NCBI GenBank assembly: GCA_937922675.1
Contig: CALAJN010000002.1
Span: forward strand, 153,192 to 217,191
Length of the DNA: 64,000 nucleotides
Direction: 5' to 3'
Source of the DNA: an uncultured Granulosicoccaceae bacterium
Lineage (GTDB): Bacteria > Pseudomonadota > Gammaproteobacteria > Granulosicoccales > Granulosicoccaceae
Each line of letters opens with the position of its first letter. The first letter of the stretch is position 1. Below the pieces are notes generated by a model. The model did not search any database and was not told the DNA's origin. It saw only the letters and a list, made by a program, of their open reading frames with translations. The position numbers and the translations under genes are program-made. This document shows positions 3,614-38,732 of this stretch, one piece after another.

Positions 3614-5319
3614 GCGATGCAACTCCCGTCACCTTTGTCAGTGATCCTGCGCTTTTCGCAACGCAGGGGAATGCTGTGCCAGCGTCAACCGGCACCGTAG
3701 TGTATCGATCAACAGGTCATTGCCTGATAATTGGTGAGCTTGACGTTGCACTGGAGGCTATAGCCTTGATGCCGTCTCTGAAGTGCACCTGCATCGCAGT
3801 CAGTGCCAATGCCTCTGATATCGACAAACGCTTGTTGGACACCGGCTCTGCGGTTTTCACTGCAGCCGCTGTTGAGTTGGCAGGTCATCTCGGAGCATTT
3901 ACAGCAACGGCCCACGCAGCAACAGCCAGTACGCCAACTGAGCAGGCGAAGGAGTCATCGCTCGATCTTGGCGTGGCAGTATGGTTGGAGGAGGGACGCT
4001 TCGATGTGGTTCTGGATCTAGGCGATACCCCGGTATTCACTCAACGCTTACCACCTGTGGGCTACACCCATTCCACGCGAGCCGACCTTGTCGATGCCTG
4101 TGAGAGTCTTGATGCGCTAGTCGGTGAATTCGACAAGCCGCGGTATTTTGAGTACCGGGAGTCGGTTTGCGCACATAGCCGCTCAACGCTCAGTGGCTGT
4201 ACGCGTTGTATCGATGTGTGCGTCACGGGCGCGATCATGTCCGCAGGTGAGGGCGTTCATGTTGATCCGTATTTGTGCCAGGGTTGTGGTTCTTGCGCTA
4301 CGGTCTGCCCCTCGGGGGCTATGAGTTATGCCTATCCCCCTGTTAGCGAGGCGGTCATGCGTACGCGTGAGCACTACTCAAACGCCACTGAATCTCACAC
4401 CGTAATATTGCATGTACAAAGTGATCAACAAGCGGTTGACTCGGCGGTTGACTCGGCAGTTGGTAACGCGACGGGTTCTGCACTGTCGCTCGCTGTTGAG
4501 GAAGTCAGTGCCTTTGGCATCGACTTCTGGCTAACCCTATTGACAGGCGGTGTTGGTCGTATCGTTCTGGTGACAGATGCGGATGACGACAATCCGAATC
4601 GCCTCGTGCTCGTGGAGCAGTCCGAGCTGTTGGAGCAATTGTTGACAGGCCTTGGTGCAGGGAGTGCACAAGCGCCGGTAGTGCACATAACCAGTTGTGA
4701 GGGTTTGGCTACCTGTCTTGAAAACGCCCCCGTCAATCAAGTGCTCGCATCGGCCCAGGCCTCAGCTCATGCGGTGCATAACGACAAGCGTGCCACGATC
4801 CGGGCCGCACTGGATGTGCTTGCTGATCGACATCCCCCCCAGACTGCCTCAGTAGCACTTGCAGCGGGCGCGCCATTTGGGCGCATTCGTGTGGATACCG
4901 ACGCCTGCACTCTGTGCATGGCGTGCGTATCGGTCTGCCCGGCAGGCTCGCTGCTCGATGGTCAGGACGTACCGGCCTTGCGGCAGATCGAGGCAAACTG
5001 TGTGCAGTGCGGATTGTGCGAGAGCGCTTGCCCGGAAAATGCGGTCACGTTGGAGCCGCGTTATCAATGGGACAGTGTGGCAGCGCGGCGTACCGAATCG
5101 CTACACGAGGAAGAGCCTTTTCACTGTGTTCGTTGCCACAAGGCGTTTGCGACGCGACGCATGATAGACACGATGACCGAAAAGCTGGCTGGTCATTGGA
5201 TGTTTGATGACGCCAAGGCCCTGCGACGGCTGAAGATGTGCGAAGACTGTCGTGTCAAGGATATGTTTGAAAACGATGCTGCTGGCATCGATGTGCGCAA
5301 GACTACCCCGCCTGCCTGA
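3610..5319 (+). CDS. multi-cluster 4Fe-4S ferredoxin-domain protein (polyferredoxin)
   Basis: 569-aa ORF with four CxxCxxCxxxCP motifs: CTRCIDVCVTGA, CQGCGSCATVCPSGA, CTLCMACVSVCPAGS and CVQCGLCESACPENA. It is translationally coupled to the upstream gene. Confidence 0.8.
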   Translation: MSDATPVTFVSDPALFATQGNAVPASTGTVVYRSTGHCLIIGELDVALEAIALMPSLKCTCIAVSANASDIDKRLLDTGSAVFTAAAVELAGHLGAFTATAHAATASTPTEQAKESSLDLGVAVWLEEGRFDVVLDLGDTPVFTQRLPPVGYTHSTRADLVDACESLDALVGEFDKPRYFEYRESVCAHSRSTLSGCTRCIDVCVTGAIMSAGEGVHVDPYLCQGCGSCATVCPSGAMSYAYPPVSEAVMRTREHYSNATESHTVILHVQSDQQAVDSAVDSAVGNATGSALSLAVEEVSAFGIDFWLTLLTGGVGRIVLVTDADDDNPNRLVLVEQSELLEQLLTGLGAGSAQAPVVHITSCEGLATCLENAPVNQVLASAQASAHAVHNDKRATIRAALDVLADRHPPQTASVALAAGAPFGRIRVDTDACTLCMACVSVCPAGSLLDGQDVPALRQIEANCVQCGLCESACPENAVTLEPRYQWDSVAARRTESLHEEEPFHCVRCHKAFATRRMIDTMTEKLAGHWMFDDAKALRRLKMCEDCRVKDMFENDAAGIDVRKTTPPA

Positions 5320-5332
5320 TCGGGAGATCGGA

Positions 5333-5992
5333 ATGAGTGATGTAAGCAGTCCAGAGCCCGCGGCGTCCAGTCGAGCTTCTCTGAATGTCAAAAGTGAGCA
5401 AGCGTTTCTTGCTGATGAAATGCAAGCCGTGCGCGCCGGGACCTGGCGTTTTCTTGCAGGCCTCCTGGCGCGTGCTCCCGACAGTAGTGTACTTGACTCA
5501 CTGCGAGCGCTTGAGAACATCGATACCTCTGAAGGACGCATTGCCATGGGCTGGGAGTTAATGCGCCAAGCGGCGAGTGACGCTGACATGGCTTCACTTG
5601 AGGATGAGTACTTCAACCTGTTTACAGGTCTTGGACGTGGTGAGTTGGTTCCTTTTGGCAGCTGGTACCTGACCGGGTTCCTGATGGAGAAGCCCGTAGC
5701 TGTTTTACGCCGTGATCTTCAGCGACTCGGCATCGAACGTGAGGCCGGGGTTGTAGAGTCGGAAGATCATGCCGCCGCTTTGGCTGAAACCATGGCCATC
5801 CTGATTGATGCCCACGAGGAAATATCTCTCAGCGAGCAGCAAAGCTTTTTCAAGGAACACATCGAGCCCTGGATGGGATCCTTCTTCAAGGATTTGCAAA
5901 ACGCCAAAAACGCACGGTTTTACCGAGCAGCAGGCTTCTTTGGAGAGAGCGTGTTTGATTTTGAGCGGGAGCTTCTGGCAATGCGTGGCTAG
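5333..5992 (+). CDS. TorD/DmsD-family redox-enzyme maturation chaperone
   Basis: In-frame ATG at 5333 is preceded by GGGAGA. TorD-like motifs are present: EDEYFNLFTG...PFGSWY and ESEDHAAALAETMAIL. Confidence 0.7.
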   Translation: MSDVSSPEPAASSRASLNVKSEQAFLADEMQAVRAGTWRFLAGLLARAPDSSVLDSLRALENIDTSEGRIAMGWELMRQAASDADMASLEDEYFNLFTGLGRGELVPFGSWYLTGFLMEKPVAVLRRDLQRLGIEREAGVVESEDHAAALAETMAILIDAHEEISLSEQQSFFKEHIEPWMGSFFKDLQNAKNARFYRAAGFFGESVFDFERELLAMRG

Positions 5993-6290
5993 AGCGCAAA
6001 AAAATGTGGTGAGAAAACGAATGATTTCCCGGTGTGGTGTTTTACAAGAGGTATGGAAGTCGCGCATGTGGTGCACGTGATCTGACACCTGGAGAACACT
6101 CTGAATTGAATCGCCTTGTTCTGTCACTGACCGCCGGCGCTATGCTGTCTGGCGGATCCTTGCCGGGAATACCAATACCCGCGTGTCTCCGGTGACGCTA
6201 CGACTGGTCTTTACACACAGCCAAGACTGCTAGAGGCGGCTCGCGTGTTGATGAAACAGCGGGTCGGAGTCCGGGGATGCAGAAGTACTT

Positions 6291-7517
6291 TCAATAGTTC
6301 CATAAGGTTCCATCCTCCAGCCGGACAATCGGGTGGCTTCCAGGCTCGTACTCATAACGAGCAGCTTCGGTTTCATCGAAATCGACGCCAAGCCCCGGCG
6401 CATCGCTGACGTACATAAACCCTTGATCCATCCTGTGGTCGCTTGGGAAGAGTGCGTGGCATTCAGGTGTGTCGAGCACCAGGTATTCCTGAATACCGAA
6501 GTTTGGTGCCCAGGCGTTCAGGTGTGCATGGGCCGCCATGCATAGTGGTGAATGGCTGGGTGCGCCGTGGAAACCCGTGCGCACATGGTGCAGAGCGGCA
6601 AGATCAACGATGCGTTTTACGGGCGTGATACCACCGGCGTAGGTGGCCGCCACTCGGATGAAGTCGATAAGTTCGTTCTCGATCAGTTTGTTGCAGTCCC
6701 ATATCGAGTTGAATACTTCACCTATGGCTATTGGTACAGTTGAATGCTGTCGCAGCAGTTGCAGAGCATTCTGATCCTCTGCCGGTGTTGGATCCTCCAG
6801 CCAGAACAGCTTTACCGGTTCCACTTCTTTTGAGAACTCTGCAGCCTCGCGCGGCAGTAAACGATGATGCACATCGTGCAGTAGTCTGATTTGTGGACCA
6901 AAGCGTTCGCGAAGCTCGGCGAGCGCACCAGGCATGTAACGCAGATAGCGATCGGTGTCCCATATTTCTTCCTGCGGGCGAATACCACTGAAATCCGTGA
7001 TGTAGTGTTTTGAATCGCTAGTGCTATCTGGAATTGCATAGCTTGCCGTTGGCATGCCCGGGATGCCGCATTGCACCCGTACGGCCTTGTAGCCCTTGTC
7101 AACGTAGTGCGACACCGAGTCCACCAAGGCAGGTAGGTCAGATCCTGTGGCGTGTGCGTACACCATCGCCCCGTTGCGACTCTTGCCGCCAAACAGTTGA
7201 TACAGAGGCATATTGGCAAGCTTGCCTTTGATGTCCCAAAGGGCCATGTCAATCGCGCCGATGGCTGCCATAGTGATGGGGCCGCGACGAAAGTAGGCGC
7301 CGCGATAGAAGTACTGCCAGATGTCCTCGCTGTTGCGCGGATCCATACCGATCAGAACGGGAATCAGGTAGTCCTGCAGATACGTTGCAGGCAGGGTCTC
7401 GCGATTGTTGAGCGTGGCATCGCCAAGGCCATAGATGCCTTGGTCGGTAACAAGCTTGAGCGTCACGTAGTTCTTGCCGGGCCCCCCGACAAATACCTTG
7501 GCGTCGACAATCTTCAT
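6291..7517 (-). CDS. enolase-superfamily D-mannonate/D-galactonate dehydratase family protein
   Basis: 408-aa ORF. The N-terminus MKIVDAKVFVGGPGKNYVTLKLVTDQGIYGLGDATLNNRE and the later LEDP, IAIGE and HG motifs are typical of ManD-type enolase-superfamily dehydratases. Confidence 0.8.
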   Translation of the reverse strand: MKIVDAKVFVGGPGKNYVTLKLVTDQGIYGLGDATLNNRETLPATYLQDYLIPVLIGMDPRNSEDIWQYFYRGAYFRRGPITMAAIGAIDMALWDIKGKLANMPLYQLFGGKSRNGAMVYAHATGSDLPALVDSVSHYVDKGYKAVRVQCGIPGMPTASYAIPDSTSDSKHYITDFSGIRPQEEIWDTDRYLRYMPGALAELRERFGPQIRLLHDVHHRLLPREAAEFSKEVEPVKLFWLEDPTPAEDQNALQLLRQHSTVPIAIGEVFNSIWDCNKLIENELIDFIRVAATYAGGITPVKRIVDLAALHHVRTGFHGAPSHSPLCMAAHAHLNAWAPNFGIQEYLVLDTPECHALFPSDHRMDQGFMYVSDAPGLGVDFDETEAARYEYEPGSHPIVRLEDGTLWNY

Positions 7518-32459: not shown

Positions 32460-33710
32460 TCAGGGAATGCGTTCGGTGATCTCCAGTATCAACGGGGCAT
32501 CCGGCGTGCCGCCTTGCCCGATCACGAGCGGCTGCTCTATGGACCAGTCACCGGATGAGGCTGTCGGTTGACCAGACAATGATGCGCGTGCGCCGACAAT
32601 GACTTCCGGGAAGGCCGCAAGCGTCATGTTGGGTATCATCGCCATTGTCTCGTCCAGCGTCAGTGTAAGCGGCAAGTCAGCCACGCTAAGCCTTTGCACC
32701 GCAAGCGGCATGGGTGGGCCATTGGCCGCTCGCGCAAAGACGAACACGGCCGTCTCCGGAGATAGTGCCGCCGCGGCTTCCCCAAGTGACACACTGACAG
32801 TGATCGACACTGAGCTACTCGCGTCCGATGCGGCGGTTTCCGCGGGAGTCGCCATAGCCCCCAATTCAGCCTGCGAGCGTGCAGCGTATTGATCAACGGT
32901 GGCGACCGCCTGGCTGTTGCCATTGGCGTTGGCAATGGACCTGAGCGTGCCGAACAGGGTGAGTGCCTCCTCATGTTGACCGGCTTGTTGGCGCGCAACT
33001 CCGAGCAGCCATAGCGCTTGTTCGTTTTGATCGTCAAGCGCATACGCTCGCTCGAGCAGAGCCACCGGCTCGCCGGCGAGCAGTCCTCCGTCGCGCATGG
33101 CCTTTGCCTCGGCAAGACTTGTCATGGTGCCTACATCGTCGGTGTCGAATTCCAGGGCACGGGTCAGTGCATCGGAGGCCTTGTCGAATTCAGAGGTTGC
33201 CAGGTAGGTTCGCCCCAACATGCGCCATCCTGTGACGTCTTCCGGGTTCTGCGCAAGCCGTTGCTCCAATCCGGCGATCAGCTCTGGCATCGAAGGCATG
33301 CTTCGATCGTCTGTATTGGCTGCCACCGCTGGGTCAATTGCTGCGGGTGTGCCAATTTTTGCGTAGAGCCAGGCAGCGCTGATCGGTATGGCGATCACCA
33401 TCACGAAGATCAGGCCGATGTCGGCCTTGCGCGAGCGTTTGACCTGAGTATCCGGATCAAGCTCGGATGCGAGCGTCAGTTCGATGCGCGCCCGTTCTTC
33501 GGCATACTCGGACTCACTGGTGGCGCCGTTGGCGTGGGCGGCATCCAGCGCTTGCAGGCTCTCGCGAGCGATGGCGATGTTTTTCTCGGCAAGCCCCGGT
33601 GTGTTGAGGTGGTGAGGGTCCTCGCGCCAGACACTGGCGAAAAGTATGACGAGGGTTATCAGGACCAGCAACGCAGCCAGTACCAGGAAAAGAGTCATCA
33701 GAGCAAACAC
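32460..33710 (-). CDS. ccmI: c-type cytochrome biogenesis protein CcmI/CycH-like (TPR)
   Basis: Two N-terminal TM segments separated by a charged loop, TPR-like central repeats, and a C-terminal FVFARAANGPPMPLAVQRLSVADLPLTLTLDE typical of CcmI. Confidence 0.65.
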   Translation of the reverse strand: MFALMTLFLVLAALLVLITLVILFASVWREDPHHLNTPGLAEKNIAIARESLQALDAAHANGATSESEYAEERARIELTLASELDPDTQVKRSRKADIGLIFVMVIAIPISAAWLYAKIGTPAAIDPAVAANTDDRSMPSMPELIAGLEQRLAQNPEDVTGWRMLGRTYLATSEFDKASDALTRALEFDTDDVGTMTSLAEAKAMRDGGLLAGEPVALLERAYALDDQNEQALWLLGVARQQAGQHEEALTLFGTLRSIANANGNSQAVATVDQYAARSQAELGAMATPAETAASDASSSVSITVSVSLGEAAAALSPETAVFVFARAANGPPMPLAVQRLSVADLPLTLTLDETMAMIPNMTLAAFPEVIVGARASLSGQPTASSGDWSIEQPLVIGQGGTPDAPLILEITERIP

Positions 33711-33743: not shown

Positions 33744-34283
33744 TCAGCTCTCTGCAAGTTTTCGGGTCGCGGATATTCCTGCGGACGGGGCAGACGCCAT
33801 CGCTCTGAGTCGACGCTGCAGCGGAAGACGCCGAATGGCCGATAGACGGTCTATGAACAGCTTGCCGTCCAGATGATCTAGCTCGTGCTGCAGGCAAACG
33901 GCGTGCATATTTTCCAGAGTGCGCTCAAAAGGCGTTCCGTGCCGATCACAAGCCCTCACGACGATCGTTCCTGATCGGATAACCTTGGCGCTTATACCCG
34001 GCAGGGACAGACAGGCTTCGGTCGCGATGGCCAGGCCCGATCGAGATATGATTTGCGGGTTGACGTACTCCTGAAGCGCCGAGCCATCGTCAGACAGATC
34101 CATGACCAGAACGCGCTTGAGTTCACCGACTTGCGGGGCGCACAACCCGATGCCAGGCGTGGCGTACACGGTGTCTGCAAGATCATTCAACAGCGTTGAC
34201 AATGACTCGTCGAAGGCGTGAACGGGTTGGCAAACGGTTCTCAGCGCCGAGTGCGGGTATTCCAGAATGGGCTGCTCAGCCAT
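33744..34283 (-). CDS. def: peptide deformylase
   Basis: Motifs GIGLCAPQVG, EACLSLPG and QHELDHLDGKLF. All three metal ligands are present. The start lies 9 nt after the pucC stop. Confidence 0.9.
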   Translation of the reverse strand: MAEQPILEYPHSALRTVCQPVHAFDESLSTLLNDLADTVYATPGIGLCAPQVGELKRVLVMDLSDDGSALQEYVNPQIISRSGLAIATEACLSLPGISAKVIRSGTIVVRACDRHGTPFERTLENMHAVCLQHELDHLDGKLFIDRLSAIRRLPLQRRLRAMASAPSAGISATRKLAES

Positions 34284-34292
34284 GCTTCAAGG

Positions 34293-35762
34293 TCAATGGG
34301 CGACGTGGTGCTTGATGCTGCCCCGATATGCGCGGGCGCTGCGGCTACGTAACAGCGGCCAGGTCGCCACCACGGTGACCAACAGTAGTGTGACTTCAAT
34401 GACGTACACCGCGACATAGCCCCCGGCAAGACCGAGCGAGCTTTCGCTAGCCTGCAGGGCGGCATTGACGGCATCTCTGATGATGCCGCTGGCTGCGATC
34501 GCAATACCAGCAGCGGTCGCTTGTACAGCGCCCCAGGCACCCATGGCCAGGCCTGCTTGGTGCGCCGGTGCACGCATCATGGTCGCTGTTAGTGTGCCAT
34601 GACCGAACAAGGCAGCGCCAAAGCCGATCATGAAATTGCCCACTAAAAACAGTGCCGGTGTACTCAACGGCGCCGCGCTCATGACCAGGACAAACGCAGG
34701 GATTCCAATCAAGACACCGTGCAGCACGATTTTGTAGGGATCCTCGCCTCGACCCAGCACACGCGAGGCATAGCCAAAGCCCAACAGGCCACCCAGGGCG
34801 AGCAGGGCGGTGAGCTTGGTTGTCGCACTGACCGACATCAGTAGTACATGACCACCGAAGGGCTCCAGCAGAACGTCTGCCATGCCGAAGGCCAGTGTGC
34901 CAACGCCAATAATGATCAACAGACGCATGGCGTCTGCACCCTGACTGAAGCGTGCCCACGACTCGCTGAACGTCGGATCAGCGGGGGCGTCCTTCCTGCT
35001 GGCGCCGAGCGTCTCCTGTTGCCACATCGCCACAAAGTTCAGCAGTACGGTAAGCACCGCTGCTCCTTGTATGACCTTGACCAACTTGCCAGGCGAAAAC
35101 TCTTCCAGCGCCTTGCCAAAAATCAGCGCACTGATGAGCATGCCAAGGAGCAGGGTGACGTACATCAACCCTACAACCTTCGGGTGGGATTCAGGCTCGG
35201 TCAGGTCAGTGGCCAGTGCAAGCCCCGCGGTTTGAACCGTGTGTACTCCCGCGCCCACCAGCAAAAAGGCCACCGCTGCTGAGACGTGGCCCAGCCACAG
35301 GGGAAAGTTATACGACTCACCTTGTTGTCCGAGTACCAGCAAGGCGAAAGGCATGATGGCGAAGCCACCGAACTGCCACAAGGTGCCTTTCCAGATAAAC
35401 GGTACGCGTCGCCAGCCAAGGGCACAGCGATGGGTGTCGGATTTGTATCCGATCAAGGCACGAAAAGGGGCAAATACGAGGGGCAGGGCCAGCATCACGG
35501 CTACCAACCATGCCGGTACGCCCAACTCAACGATCATGACCCGGTTAAGGGTGCCCACGAGCAAAACCAGCGCCATGCCTACGCTGACCTGAAAGAGTGA
35601 CAGACGTAGCAGTCGCCTCAGTGGCACTTCACTCGTTGCTACATCGGCAAAGGGCATGAAACGAGGGCCCAGATCCGCTAGCGTGGATACAAGCCGTTTG
35701 GCGGGTGGCCTGGATGGCAACCTGGGGGGCGTCTTTGAAGCCCCCTTGACACTATTGCTCAT
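34293..35762 (-). CDS. pucC: BCD-family MFS protein PucC/LhaA (light-harvesting complex assembly)
   Basis: 489-aa, ~12-TM ORF. The N-terminal LRLSLFQVSVGMALVLLVGTLNRVMIVELGVPAWLVAVMLALPLVFAPFRALIGYKSDTH...GWRRVPFIWKGTLWQFGGFAIMPFAL is characteristic of PucC/LhaA. It lies downstream of pucBA. Confidence 0.8.
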   Translation of the reverse strand: MSNSVKGASKTPPRLPSRPPAKRLVSTLADLGPRFMPFADVATSEVPLRRLLRLSLFQVSVGMALVLLVGTLNRVMIVELGVPAWLVAVMLALPLVFAPFRALIGYKSDTHRCALGWRRVPFIWKGTLWQFGGFAIMPFALLVLGQQGESYNFPLWLGHVSAAVAFLLVGAGVHTVQTAGLALATDLTEPESHPKVVGLMYVTLLLGMLISALIFGKALEEFSPGKLVKVIQGAAVLTVLLNFVAMWQQETLGASRKDAPADPTFSESWARFSQGADAMRLLIIIGVGTLAFGMADVLLEPFGGHVLLMSVSATTKLTALLALGGLLGFGYASRVLGRGEDPYKIVLHGVLIGIPAFVLVMSAAPLSTPALFLVGNFMIGFGAALFGHGTLTATMMRAPAHQAGLAMGAWGAVQATAAGIAIAASGIIRDAVNAALQASESSLGLAGGYVAVYVIEVTLLLVTVVATWPLLRSRSARAYRGSIKHHVAH

Positions 35763-35780: not shown

Positions 35781-36629
35781 CTAATCGTCTTTTTTCAGTA
35801 GTGGCCACCCGAACAGCGACGACACGGGTGCCGGGTTGTTGGACAACAGTGGCAGGCCGAAACTGGAGGTCTTTTGTGCTGGTCGCTCTGATGTGAGTAC
35901 GTCAATCCCCGCCTTATCAGACAAGGGAGCAGGGTTGTCTTTAAGTACACCCATACCGACTTTGGAAGATAGCGGAGCCGGATTGTCCGTCAGCGTGCTC
36001 ATGCCAACCTTGGACGACAAGGGTGCCGGATTGTCCGTCAGGGTACTCATGCCAAACCTGGACGACAAGGGTGCCGGATTGTCACTGAGCAACCCACCCA
36101 TGAGCCCACTTGTGGGGAGACTTTCTGTACTTTTCAATTCGGGGAAGGCGCGTGACATCCAGCTTCTGCGATGCGTCAGTACGGGTATATCAAGCAGAGC
36201 GGATAGAGGGGCTGCCTGCATCCAGGTGTGATAATCCAACTCTGGCACCTCGGGCATGGGCACGGATCGGCTTTGATCCAGTGTGTAGTCCACCTGCTTG
36301 CCCTCACCAAAAGGGGGAGTGACTATCAGAAGCGTCTTGCCTTCCTGAACCGTATCGGCATATACCAGGGCGTGACTGTCCGGGACGCGTGAACCGTCAT
36401 GAATGCTGACGATCAGTTCAGCCAATACGGCGCTTGAATCTGTGCCGTCCTTCTCACCGCGGTTGCGCAACCACTCGTTCTGGCCGTTGAGCATGGATGG
36501 TGAAAGGATGGATATTGCATCATCTTCGAGACCAGGCGACCTTGCCTTGAGGCTGTCCACCGATTCAAGCGCGTCCTGCTCGGATGCATAGGCTCTAGCG
36601 ATGGGGATCAGGTTCATCGTCAGTGGCAT
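35781..36629 (-). CDS. uncharacterised puc-operon protein with six C-terminal 16-aa DNPAPLSS repeats
   Basis: Start chosen at the ATG ending at 36629 (GGAGAG 7 nt upstream); the longest ORF begins at 36677. The N-terminal ~170 aa are soluble. The C-terminal 108 aa are tandem xxLxDNPAPLSSKxGM units. The stop lies 18 nt before the pucC start. Confidence 0.6.
   Translation of the reverse strand: MPLTMNLIPIARAYASEQDALESVDSLKARSPGLEDDAISILSPSMLNGQNEWLRNRGEKDGTDSSAVLAELIVSIHDGSRVPDSHALVYADTVQEGKTLLIVTPPFGEGKQVDYTLDQSRSVPMPEVPELDYHTWMQAAPLSALLDIPVLTHRRSWMSRAFPELKSTESLPTSGLMGGLLSDNPAPLSSRFGMSTLTDNPAPLSSKVGMSTLTDNPAPLSSKVGMGVLKDNPAPLSDKAGIDVLTSERPAQKTSSFGLPLLSNNPAPVSSLFGWPLLKKDD
35784..36107 (-). repeat. 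in-frame 48-bp tandem repeat array (six units, two nearly identical)
   Basis: The + strand shows repeated ggtgccggattgtccgtcag(c/g)gt(g/a)ctcatgccaa(c/a)c(t/-)tggacgacaag units. Confidence 0.85.
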
Positions 36630-36750
36630 GTCTAGTCTCTCCTGGAATGAGCGAGGGACCGGGTACTTGAGAGTCACTGAACCGACCAGTGGTGGCCGGA
36701 CTCGGCAAGCTGATCCCTGGGTAAGCGTGCCCTACGGGCAGGCTGTGATC

Positions 36751-36806
36751 AAAAGCTGATCCTGTGTGTGATCTGCCTGAGCAGATCGGTTCACAAGATC
36801 AGCTTG
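36751..36806 (-). terminator. compound stem-loop immediately downstream of pucA (partial terminator / mRNA-stabilising hairpin)
   Basis: The outer stem AAGCTGATC (36753-36761) pairs with GATCAGCTT (36797-36805). The inner perfect stem is GATCTGC-ctga-GCAGATC. A short U-run follows on the minus strand. Confidence 0.5.
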
Positions 36807-36812
36807 TTTACT

Positions 36813-36953
36813 TCAACCAAAAAAGGAGGAAAACCAACTGGAGTGCTTGAGCAGCGCGTAGTGCACACTCAGTGCCATGAAGGATACCCAGCCCAAGAAC
36901 AAGGGGATGCCGTAGGCAGGCTTGATCACAAGCCACATTCTGCTTTGATTCAT
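36813..36953 (-). CDS. pucA: light-harvesting complex 2 alpha polypeptide
   Basis: MNQSRMWLVIKPAYGIPLFLGWVSFMALSVHYALLKHSSWFSSFFG (46 aa) aligns without gaps to the Rhodoblastus acidophilus LH2 alpha chain as I recall it, including the BChl-ligand His31. A GGAGA RBS is present. Confidence 0.85.
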   Translation of the reverse strand: MNQSRMWLVIKPAYGIPLFLGWVSFMALSVHYALLKHSSWFSSFFG

Positions 36954-36963
36954 TGTTGTCTCC

Positions 36964-37122
36964 TTAGCCGAGCCAGGGTGTGAGAGCGAATGCCAGGACA
37001 TGCGCGATCAGCGCAATGACGAAGAACACGCGAGCACCGTCGATTACGTGCTTGTGCAATTCCTCGGCTTGGCCGATCGTCAGGCCACTCGGCCACACTT
37101 TGTCTGCGTTTTCAGTTGTCAT
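36964..37122 (-). CDS. pucB: light-harvesting complex 2 beta polypeptide (not in supplied ORF track; 52 aa)
   Basis: My own translation gives [52 protein letters not shown]. Beta-chain hallmarks are EELHKxVIDGxRVF and AHxLAFxxTPWL. GGAGA lies 8 nt upstream, and pucA follows 10 nt downstream. Confidence 0.85.
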
Positions 37123-37285: not shown

Positions 37286-37314
37286 AGAGTAAACAAGGCT
37301 TGTAAAATCGTCAA
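37286..37314 (-). promoter_or_regulatory. candidate sigma-70 promoter for the puc operon
   Basis: The minus strand reads TTGACG (37314-37309), 17 nt, then TACTCT (37291-37286). The -35 element overlaps a TGT-N12-ACA palindrome. Confidence 0.3.
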
Positions 37315-37318
37315 CACA
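37301..37318. promoter_or_regulatory. PpsR/CrtJ-type operator candidate (TGT-N12-ACA), site 1
   Basis: TGTaaaatcgtcaacACA lies about 180 bp upstream of the pucB ATG. Confidence 0.45.
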
Positions 37319-37335
37319 CATTTACAGATGTAATC

Positions 37336-37353
37336 TGTCAACTTGGGTTGACA
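37336..37353. promoter_or_regulatory. PpsR/CrtJ-type operator candidate, site 2 (perfect TGTCA-N8-TGACA)
   Basis: TGTCAACttggGTTGACA is a 7+7 perfect inverted repeat that matches the consensus TGTcAN8TgACA exactly. Confidence 0.6.
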
Positions 37354-37581: not shown

Positions 37582-38445
37582 CTACAAACCGTTCAAGGGC
37601 ACTTTCAAGGCAGGTGCGCCTGAATCATCTGTGGGTAATTCACCGGCTCGCATGTTCACTTGTAGCGACGGAATAATCAGCCCGGGCACCTTGAGTGTGG
37701 CGTCACGTTCGGTGCGGAGTTTTACAAAGGCCTCACGCGTCGCGCCGTCACCCACGTGAATGTTGTTGGCGCGCTCATCAGCGACAGTTGTCTCCCAGGA
37801 AATCTCGCGCCCGTTCGGGCCGTAGTCGTGACACATGAACAGACGTGTCTCCGGCGGTAGCGAGAGGACGCGCTGGATCGAGTCGTAGAGCATGCCCGCA
37901 TCGCCGCCGGGAAAATCGGCACGCGCGGTTCCGCCATCAGGCATGAACAGGGTGTCGCCGACGAAGCCTGCATCGCCGATCACGTGCACGGTGCACGCGG
38001 GGGTGTGCCCCGGCGTGTGCATGACGCGCGCTTGCATGGTGCCTATCGAATAGGTGTCACCGTCTTCAAACAGTCGATCAAACTGCGAGCCGTCCCGCTG
38101 GAACTCGGTGCCTTCGTTAAACACCTTGCCAAACGTGTCCTGTACCACCGTGATGCCTGCGCCAATGCCGATGCGACCTCCGAGCCGCTCCTGCAGCCAC
38201 GGAGCCGCCGACAAATGGTCCGCATGTACATGCGTCTCGATGATCCACTCGAGGCTGAGCCCGTTGGACTCGATATGTGACGCAATCCGCTCAGCCTGAT
38301 CAGTGGCAATACGGCCTGCAGCGTAGTCAAAGTCCAGCACAGAGTCGATGACCGCGCAGGCGCTGCCCGCTGGGTCGCGCACCACGTAGCTGATGGTGTG
38401 GCTGGCCTGGTCGAAGAAGGCGGTGACTTCTGGAGATGCGATCAT
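37582..38445 (-). CDS. MBL-fold metallo-hydrolase (glyoxalase II / persulfide-dioxygenase-like)
   Basis: Start MIASPE has GGAGGG 6 nt upstream. Metal motif ETHVHADHLS, with later HTPGHTPA and a conserved Asp/His. Confidence 0.8.
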   Translation of the reverse strand: MIASPEVTAFFDQASHTISYVVRDPAGSACAVIDSVLDFDYAAGRIATDQAERIASHIESNGLSLEWIIETHVHADHLSAAPWLQERLGGRIGIGAGITVVQDTFGKVFNEGTEFQRDGSQFDRLFEDGDTYSIGTMQARVMHTPGHTPACTVHVIGDAGFVGDTLFMPDGGTARADFPGGDAGMLYDSIQRVLSLPPETRLFMCHDYGPNGREISWETTVADERANNIHVGDGATREAFVKLRTERDATLKVPGLIIPSLQVNMRAGELPTDDSGAPALKVPLNGL

Positions 38446-38732
38446 TTTATTCCCTCCGGTTATCGGGGATACCAATACTGCCGCCTGGATAGAGACCTCG
38501 CCTGCGTTCGAGGCGCTGGAGGCAAGCGTTGTTGTGCCGGGGGCACGGCGAGCCGACCACCATCGATGTTGTGTGTACCTGGGCGATGGGTTGTCTGGAG
38601 TACACGCGCGGTGAATTCAGGCGGCTGCTCGATGAGGGCGTGCCATGGAGTCTGAATAACCTTATTGACAACACGTAGCACGCGAACAGGCTAGTCTAGA
38701 CAGACATTACAGATTTTACGCATCTGCCCTTT

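Follow-up and report, generated by a model that had tools for sequence, protein, structure and literature searches.

The light-harvesting complex 2 (LH2) operon of an uncultured Granulosicoccaceae bacterium includes a gene, which we call X, between the genes for the antenna polypeptides (pucB and pucA) and the gene for the assembly factor PucC. This operon lies in a 64,000-nucleotide stretch of DNA that we call the window (NCBI GenBank assembly GCA_937922675.1, contig CALAJN010000002.1, positions 153,192 to 217,191 of the forward strand; the coordinates below count from its first letter). We found that X belongs to a family of proteins that is linked to puc genes in diverse bacteria, and whose member in Rhodopseudomonas palustris appears to be the parent of gamma, a ribbon-like subunit of LH2. 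The anatomy of the gene, its membership in this family, its linkage to puc genes, and a transitive chain of homology to gamma are what the sequences show. Beyond this, we suspect that X is a belt protein that would bind the cytoplasmic rim of LH2 by its repetitive tail, while also carrying a folded head; it would probably be free of pigment and could be either a subunit or an assembly aid. We hold this interpretation tentatively, at somewhat less than even odds. The parts of X and its nearest neighbors are:

35781 to 36629, minus strand: X, an open reading frame (ORF) of 282 amino acids plus the stop codon, between pucBA and pucC (from ORF calling).
36222 to 36629, minus strand: the head domain of X (residues 1-136), compact alpha/beta and remotely YflT-like in an AlphaFold model, and predicted to be cytoplasmic.
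35784 to 36221, minus strand: the tail of X (residues 137-282), nine units of about 16 residues, predicted to be disordered (from the family alignment and a table of the units).
36964 to 37122, minus strand: pucB, the LH2 beta polypeptide, 52 amino acids (Pfam LHC, E = 1.4e-9).
36813 to 36953, minus strand: pucA, the LH2 alpha polypeptide, 46 amino acids, beginning with MNQSRMW and with AAGGAGA in front of the gene (Pfam LHC, E = 1.6e-7).
34293 to 35762, minus strand: pucC, the LH2 assembly factor, 489 amino acids (Pfam PUCC, E = 1.8e-140).

X begins with the ATG at 36629 and ends with the stop codon at 35781-35783. A GTG at 36677 is a possible alternative start, but the N-termini of the homologues agree with 36629 instead (family alignment). 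AGGAGAG, a good ribosome-binding site, lies 7 nucleotides 5' of the ATG, and the stop codon is 18 nucleotides from the ATG of pucC (35762). An earlier, model-made description of this DNA (the first-pass annotation) had reported the ORF, its ribosome-binding site, its spacing to pucC, and the lack of a transmembrane helix. All of these hold up, and we add the strand (minus), which had been left unstated. The highest Kyte-Doolittle hydropathy of any 19-residue window in X is 0.77, and no transmembrane helix is found.

We considered and rejected several other descriptions of X. Conservation among the homologues rules out a spurious ORF, and the hydropathy, with no transmembrane segment, rules out a secreted or transmembrane protein. 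X is not a PucC-type assembly factor of the major facilitator superfamily (PF03209, with 12 transmembrane segments) either: the PUCC model does not match it, it has no transmembrane segment, and the true pucC is the neighboring gene. X had no matches in Pfam or NCBIfam, and a tblastn search of plasmids for X gave no match. A search of the window for a second gamma-like ORF found none.

To which other genes are X and its relatives linked? Among the candidates scored from a protein database, 823 homologues of X had E ≤ 1e-3. All of them are unnamed or annotated as "hypothetical", or occasionally as "general stress protein". The family is found in Alpha-, Beta-, and Gammaproteobacteria and in Myxococcota. 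The carriers include marine aerobic phototrophs (Granulosicoccus) and further Gammaproteobacteria, Burkholderiaceae, Acetobacteraceae (Rhodopila and Acidisphaera), Hyphomicrobiales, Kiloniellales, Algihabitans albus, Aestuariivirga litoralis, Rhodopseudomonas, and metagenome-assembled genomes (MAGs) of Myxococcota. The family takes in purple non-sulfur model strains and is not peculiar to the aerobic phototrophs of the Gammaproteobacteria. The window protein has all of the features that mark the puc-linked members: a head, a first motif with AAP[LF]S, 16-residue repeats, a terminal NNP.PLSS.LG.P.L, and puc genes as neighbors.

We examined gene neighborhoods at 80 loci from species-representative genomes. 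These came from a genome scan with a 12-sequence alignment and were chosen by their C-terminal peptide motif only; pucB, pucA, pucC, and the peptide deformylase gene (def) were then placed by tblastn. At 73 of the 80 loci, X has pucB, pucA, or pucC beside it, and most of the other loci are on short contigs. A clean order on a single strand was seen at 65 loci: pucBA-X-pucC (35 loci), pucBA-pucC-X (22 loci), or X-pucBA-pucC (8 loci). X and pucC are usually close together, with a gap of 22-130 bp at most loci. A more distant member of the family lies tail-to-tail with pucC. Because the linkage outlasts three gene orders plus an inversion, this neighborhood, which is conserved over four bacterial classes or phyla, is strong evidence that X is functionally tied to LH2. 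From the position in the operon, the first-pass annotation had argued for a role in the assembly, stoichiometry, or membrane organization of LH2. The conserved neighborhood now supports the tie to LH2, and one of the three candidate roles that it listed, a gamma-like peripheral subunit, gains direct support from the comparisons below. It had also noted that the idea would be refuted if homologues were widespread without any link to puc genes, which is not what we see.

Two other features of these loci are worth recording. Three Rhodopila-like MAGs from the Acetobacteraceae (loci L023, L033, and L038, at about 3900-6800) have three paralogues in tandem, all with the head domain of X, near Rrf2/suf, short-chain dehydrogenase, and ppx/ppk genes; no puc genes lie within 6 kb of these paralogues. 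And at some of the pucBA-pucC-X loci (L005 and L007, at about 3990-4460), the called product of pucA has 125-128 amino acids, which gives alpha a long C-terminal extension.

The tail of X is built from repeats. As the first-pass annotation had noticed, the last 108 amino acids contain six clear tandem units of 16 residues, two of which are identical at the protein level (STLTDNPAPLSSKVGM, twice). In the family alignment, the repeats can be seen to start earlier than that, with three degenerate or early units upstream of the six clear ones, for a total of nine. The series runs from the first motif (AAPLSALLDIPVL) through two degenerate units, four units with DNPAPLSSxxGM, and one with SSFGLPLLS, to the terminal motif (NNPAPVSSLFGWPLL). 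The first motif is strongly conserved as W-x-x-AAPLSxLLxxPVL, and P141 and S143 are invariant in a 25-sequence alignment (A1). The 48-bp DNA repeats that had been described are also present, in that the period is visible in five copies at 61-93% identity: Tandem Repeats Finder reported a 48-bp unit with 2.2 copies and 93% identity, and a looser search of the DNA found 5 copies, at 61-81% identity to the reference copy and with spacings of 99, 48, 48, and 48 bp. Across 895 units from 256 proteins of the family, the consensus is L-S-D-N-P-A-P-L-S-S-K-L-G-[LWM]-[PRK]-V-L, and a spacing of 16 residues predominates (293 of the spacings counted). Members of the family differ in their number of units, from 5 to 19. 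This range weakens the idea that the tail is a ruler for LH2 ring size, with as many units as the ring has protomers.

Through its relatives in Rhodopseudomonas, X can be connected to a known subunit of LH2. In Rhodopseudomonas palustris, RPA1495 (UniProt Q6NP95) is the gamma polypeptide of LH2, and it is present in the structures 7ZCU, 7ZDI, 7ZE3, and 7ZE8 from the Protein Data Bank (PDB; Qian et al. 2022, PMC9618040). Gamma takes the form of an extended ribbon that lies among the lipid head groups at the cytoplasmic side. It winds around the exterior of the alpha-beta ring, and each alpha-beta pair is matched by one 16-residue unit (PMC9618040). It has six repeats of about 16 residues, and a Ser from each repeat ligates an extra bacteriochlorophyll (BChl) a. 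The paper reports, from BLASTp, that gamma occurs in Rhodopseudomonas alone (PMC9618040).

Searching from the family member in strain BisB18 (WP_011474202 / Q20ZW6), we found orthologues of X in many strains of Rhodopseudomonas, including TIE-1 (Rpal_1681) and CGA009. All of these are annotated as "hypothetical". The orthologue in CGA009 is RPA1494, as judged by its position. In TIE-1, the order of genes is bacteriophytochrome, pucB, pucA, pucC, X (Rpal_1681), and an ORF of 97 amino acids, and this last ORF is the gamma sequence. The repeats in the tail of Rpal_1681 are similar to chain S of PDB entry 7zcu, "PucA-LH2-gamma" (phmmer, E = 1.9e-27). By this match, gamma is a paralogue of its upstream neighbor's tail, without the head. 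Gamma also appears to derive from this head-bearing paralogue beside it. In BisB18, X is followed by a gamma-like ORF of 143 amino acids that has repeats only and ends with the terminal motif of the X family, KNPTTLSSLLGIPTLLN (locus L073, 6577-7008). This ORF looks like an evolutionary intermediate between the tail of X and gamma. In the searchable literature, we found no paper that mentions the X family or that connects RPA1494-type proteins to gamma.

We also noticed that in TIE-1, the pucBA-pucC-X-gamma operon has genes for a response regulator and a bacteriophytochrome histidine kinase immediately upstream (locus L091, 354-2666). Given these upstream genes, the X orthologue probably shares the light or redox control of the puc genes of TIE-1.

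The window protein is clearly homologous to the Rhodopseudomonas proteins. When we aligned the window-type family to the Rhodopseudomonas-type X with hhalign, the probability was 100% (E = 7.7e-46, 254 columns), and the full-length alignment takes in the head as well as the first and terminal motifs, and puts the repeats of both types at the same place in the protein and in one 16-residue register. BLASTP with the window protein alone gave E = 2e-15 against the BisB18 protein and E = 4e-7 against the TIE-1 protein. If only the tails are compared, hhalign gives E = 1.2e-15 for the window type against the Rhodopseudomonas type, and E = 8.9e-9 for the window type against a two-sequence alignment of gamma. 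Controls for the tail comparisons, with reversed or column-shuffled alignments, gave E = 0.1-1. The link from the window protein to gamma is remote and transitive, via the Rhodopseudomonas orthologue: X in the window is an orthologue of gamma's apparent parent and not itself a gamma, and its repeats are a diverged variant. The first-pass annotation had recognized the repeat from no described photosynthesis protein, which was too strong given this remote relationship.

We propose that X is a two-part, membrane-peripheral accessory protein of LH2, with a soluble cytoplasmic head (residues 1-136) and a flexible ribbon-like tail (residues 137-282). The binding mode, the absence of pigment, the stoichiometry, and the role are what we infer. 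The tail would bind LH2 in the manner of gamma, along the outside of the ring at its cytoplasmic rim, with one unit per alpha-beta pair. The head would remain in the cytoplasm as a handle, and might contact PucC or neighboring complexes. Such a belt would stabilize, template, or organize the ring rather than add absorbers. The LH2 complexes of Rps. palustris are nonamers, and the length of the N-terminus of alpha is treated as a determinant of ring size (PMC9618040). The N-terminus of PucA from the window has the same length as that of Rps. palustris PucA (MNQGKIW), so the ring might be a nonamer here as well, and nine units could then suffice to encircle it. AlphaFold predicts that most of the tail has a confidence (predicted local distance difference test, or pLDDT) of about 46-62, rising to about 71 near the C-terminus, and this predicted disorder would agree with a ribbon that becomes ordered only on its partner.

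Several observations weigh against this proposal, and most of them concern the comparison to gamma. Most of the signal between the tail of X and gamma comes from the common first and last motifs. Once these end motifs are removed, the internal repeats alone align to gamma-type repeats with E of about 0.014-0.02. Direct comparisons to gamma are not significant either: X from the window gives E = 0.014 with BLASTP, and a profile against gamma (TIE-1) alone gives E = 0.18-0.22. A hidden Markov model of the gamma unit gives matches of at most 8 bits, all confined to the G-x-P-L-L core, and a profile of the X family does not retrieve gamma from PDB. The Ser of gamma that ligates BChl is not conserved: the residue before the Gly is L, F, I, V, or A in the 895 units of the family. 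The range of 5 to 19 units argues against a strict rule of one unit per protomer. Not every family member is linked to puc genes, the exceptions being the three-paralogue cluster in the Rhodopila-like MAGs and one short paralogue. Finally, a full-text search of the main text of the paper on LH2 from Rps. palustris found no mention of RPA1494 (PMC9618040). Since the same paper describes the structures with gamma, the X orthologue may not be a stable subunit there.

The hydrophobic residues in place of gamma's ligand also bear on whether X binds pigment. In the register of the hhalign alignment, the position of the BChl-ligating Ser, just before the conserved Gly, is occupied by F, V, V, A, F, and F in the window protein. 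Because this position is hydrophobic in every unit, the belt would probably be pigment-free. On the other hand, X might be a pigment-binding auxiliary antenna subunit if each unit bound a B800-type BChl by another ligand, such as the Ser of P-L-S or the Asp or Asn of D-N-P. The first of these candidates is 99% Ser where our search pattern allowed either Ser or Thr, and the D-N-P positions are 44% D and 11% N at one position and 46% N and 17% D at the next. Ser and Asp/Asn can ligate Mg in other antenna proteins. X is also remotely related to gamma, which binds one BChl per unit (PMC9618040). But gamma's own ligand position is hydrophobic in all units of X, and the tail of X has just one His. 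We consider pigment binding quite unlikely.

The head of X is a folded domain. In an AlphaFold model that was built with a 75-sequence alignment, residues 10-130 or so form a single alpha/beta domain of about 130 amino acids, which is modeled with confidence (pLDDT of 91-98). The first-pass annotation had described the N-terminal part of X as paired small domains that resemble stress proteins. The pairing does not stand, as there is one domain of about 130 residues with pLDDT above 90, while the resemblance to YflT is real but lies below the threshold of Pfam. Specifically, 17 of 25 family members have weak matches to YflT (PF11181), and the best of these scores 23.3 bits, as compared to a gathering score of 26.2. 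These matches mostly cover about 33 of the 99 positions in the model, from its first third. The window protein itself has no match to PF11181 at E ≤ 1. Comparing the AlphaFold model to PDB with Foldseek gave a best E of 0.57, with ferredoxin-like folds of the PII or NDK type at low probability and no assignment, and sequence searches of PDB with profiles of the family or of the head gave only chance-level matches.

A profile of the head alone retrieves 4,559 representatives of clusters at 50% identity with E ≤ 1e-3, or 853 with E ≤ 1e-10. It also retrieves proteins of 560-805 amino acids (P0148, P0151, and similar) in which 5-7 YflT-like copies are interleaved with glycine-zipper hydrophobic segments. 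By similarity, these multi-copy proteins place the head of X in a far wider superfamily without an assigned function.

Given the head, could X be a general stress protein or a regulatory protein of the cytoplasm that travels with puc genes and makes no direct contact with LH2? Its YflT-like head would then act as in the general stress proteins of Bacillus. Besides the weak matches to YflT, one database labels a homologue as "general stress protein", the head profile reaches multi-domain YflT-like proteins outside the X family, and there are a few paralogues away from puc genes. Hitch-hiking does not explain why the linkage to puc persists through three rearrangements and an inversion in distant lineages, however, and the tail of X is related to a bona fide subunit of LH2. 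Also, all of the YflT matches are below the curated threshold and most cover a third of the model. This explanation strikes us as very improbable.

Returning to the proposed belt, its role could be in the finished ring or in building it. The homology of X to gamma, a stable subunit, favors a structural role. Its conserved adjacency to pucC, together with a dedicated deformylase, favors a role in assembly. The deformylase gene lies on the far side of pucC from X, and the genes that flank this group in the window are listed with it:

33744 to 34283, minus strand: a peptide deformylase paralogue, directly 3' of pucC (Pfam Pep_deformylase, E = 3.4e-46).
32460 to 33710, minus strand: a CcmH/CycH-type cytochrome c biogenesis gene, at one flank of the cassette.
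37582 to 38475, minus strand: a gene with a metallo-beta-lactamase fold, at the other flank.

The deformylase gene in the window is part of a conserved cassette, pucBA-X-pucC-def. A match to Def lies 11-252 bp after pucC at essentially all of the loci with pucBA-X-pucC or X-pucBA-pucC, and at none of the 22 loci with pucBA-pucC-X. In relatives from the genus Granulosicoccus, unlike in the window, the upstream neighbor of the cassette is a urease cluster. The differing flanks imply that the cassette is located outside of any photosynthesis gene cluster and has been moved as one block. The cassette may also bear on how the N-terminal Met of alpha is processed. In several structures of LH2, B800 is ligated by Met1 of the alpha polypeptide in its N-carboxylated form (PMC8775250). 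We speculate that a dedicated deformylase could ready the N-terminus of alpha, with its B800-ligating Met, for this purpose.

These neighbors raise another alternative, in which X is a transient co-factor of PucC for assembly. Its tail would line up several new alpha-beta pairs, or the very short apoproteins ahead of their insertion, near PucC while the ring closes; X would then leave, and it would be absent from the finished complex. X lies beside pucC, often immediately so (a gap of 18 nucleotides here, and 22-130 bp at most loci), and the deformylase in the same cassette points to a module for biogenesis. A tail that is both multivalent and disordered is what scaffolds typically have. PucC is an established assembly factor for LH2 and forms oligomers at assembly sites (PMC4949548). 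And as mentioned above, the X orthologue does not appear in the main text of the paper that found gamma in LH2 from Rps. palustris. Against this, gamma is the closest characterized relative of X and is a stable, stoichiometric subunit (PMC9618040). Pull-downs with FLAG-tagged PucC (PMC4949548) are uninformative both ways, as they were made in Rba. sphaeroides, and the X gene is not known from that species. Overall, we see this as a somewhat unlikely alternative.

Two features of the operon bear on how much X is made and when:

36753 to 36805, minus strand: a strong stem-loop directly 3' of pucA, followed by UUUUGAU (minimum free energy of the region -75.8 kcal/mol, z = -3.46).
37301 to 37318 and 37336 to 37353, no strand assigned: two TGT-N12-ACA palindromes, which are candidate sites of the PpsR/CrtJ type (from a pattern scan).

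In classical puc operons, a structure like this stem-loop parts the abundant pucBA message from weakly expressed distal genes. The region after pucA is also structured at most of the related loci (median z = -2.6, with 64% below -2). By analogy, the stem-loop in the window is likely to part these messages too, as a partial terminator or an mRNA stabilizer. X is distal to the hairpin, as is pucC, and should be made in amounts far below those of alpha and beta. Its distal position would fit with about one copy per ring, or with a catalytic assembly factor, and not with a 1:1 partner of alpha and beta. For a belt, we propose roughly one copy of X per ring, far below the level of alpha and beta.

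TGT-N12-ACA is the consensus for PpsR. The pair of sites lies about 180-230 nucleotides upstream of pucB, and one of them is a perfect palindrome, TGTCAACTTGGGTTGACA. The window has 22 matches to this pattern, as compared to 15 ± 3.8 expected, so a single match is weak evidence, and the suggestive part is that two adjacent matches are at the puc promoter. The pair suggests that oxygen or light might repress the puc operon in the window. A scan for sigma-70 promoters gave no match.

If X does form a belt, what would this mean for LH2? Few membrane protein complexes have been studied as much as LH2, and gamma, described in 2022, is its only known ribbon subunit besides alpha and beta. Ribbon-type subunits of LH2 are known from one genus; the X family seems to be a distinct variant of these ribbon proteins, with a head, without the ligand Ser, and with a wide distribution. 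The family offers an evolutionary origin for gamma, and X is a concrete candidate for a missing factor in the assembly or organization of LH2, alongside PucC. A bolder idea is that the X family is an ancestral and widespread third component of LH2, a single copy of which would make a full belt around each ring at its cytoplasmic rim (nine units for a nonamer here) in most Proteobacteria that have LH2, with gamma from Rhodopseudomonas as a recent head-less offshoot. The head might set the closure or the size of the ring, or might join one ring to another or to PucC. We think that this is unlikely. If it were true, then the textbook view of an LH2 with only alpha and beta would be incomplete for many organisms, and the belt would have been lost during purification with detergent.

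We close by comparing X to other proteins. YflT, or the general stress protein 17M domain (PF11181), has an N-terminal beta-alpha-beta segment in common with the head of X, with the pattern x-I-x-R-x-Y-x-S-x-x-x-A-x-x-A-V-x-x-L. The function of YflT is unassigned, so this resemblance explains little about X.

No model from Pfam or NCBIfam links X to PucD or PucE. In the B800-850 complex of Rba. capsulatus, PucD and PucE are encoded 3' of pucC (in the pucBACDE operon) and are needed for stable LH2; PucE is a 14 kDa non-pigmented "gamma". PucE co-purifies with the complex without bound pigment, and its role resembles the one that we propose for X, which we view only as a lead.

Like X, gamma from Rhodopseudomonas has its gene beside pucC in a puc operon, has tandem units of about 16 residues, and has neither a transmembrane helix nor regular secondary structure in its repeats. 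The tail of X has the same 16-residue period as gamma, and some units of the two proteins have a common G-x-P-L-L core. But gamma has 97 amino acids, with six units and nothing besides repeats, while X has 282 amino acids, with a folded head of 136 residues and nine units. Where gamma has the BChl-ligating Ser, X has a hydrophobic residue, and their internal units can barely be aligned. Also, gamma is known only from Rhodopseudomonas (PMC9618040), while the X family extends across the Alpha-, Beta-, and Gammaproteobacteria and the Myxococcota.

The closest comparison is to the X of Rps. palustris itself (the Rpal_1681 type). It has the same kind of head as X from the window, a first motif of the form AAP[LF]S..L...PVL, 16-residue repeats, a terminal NNP.P.SS.LG.P.L, and a place in the puc operon. 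It differs in its internal repeats, which belong to the gamma type and have the Ser (GPYKSFSGTPLL), in that it is shorter (216-223 amino acids, with about 6-7 units), and in that its gene is located after pucC instead of before it and coexists with a separate gene for gamma.

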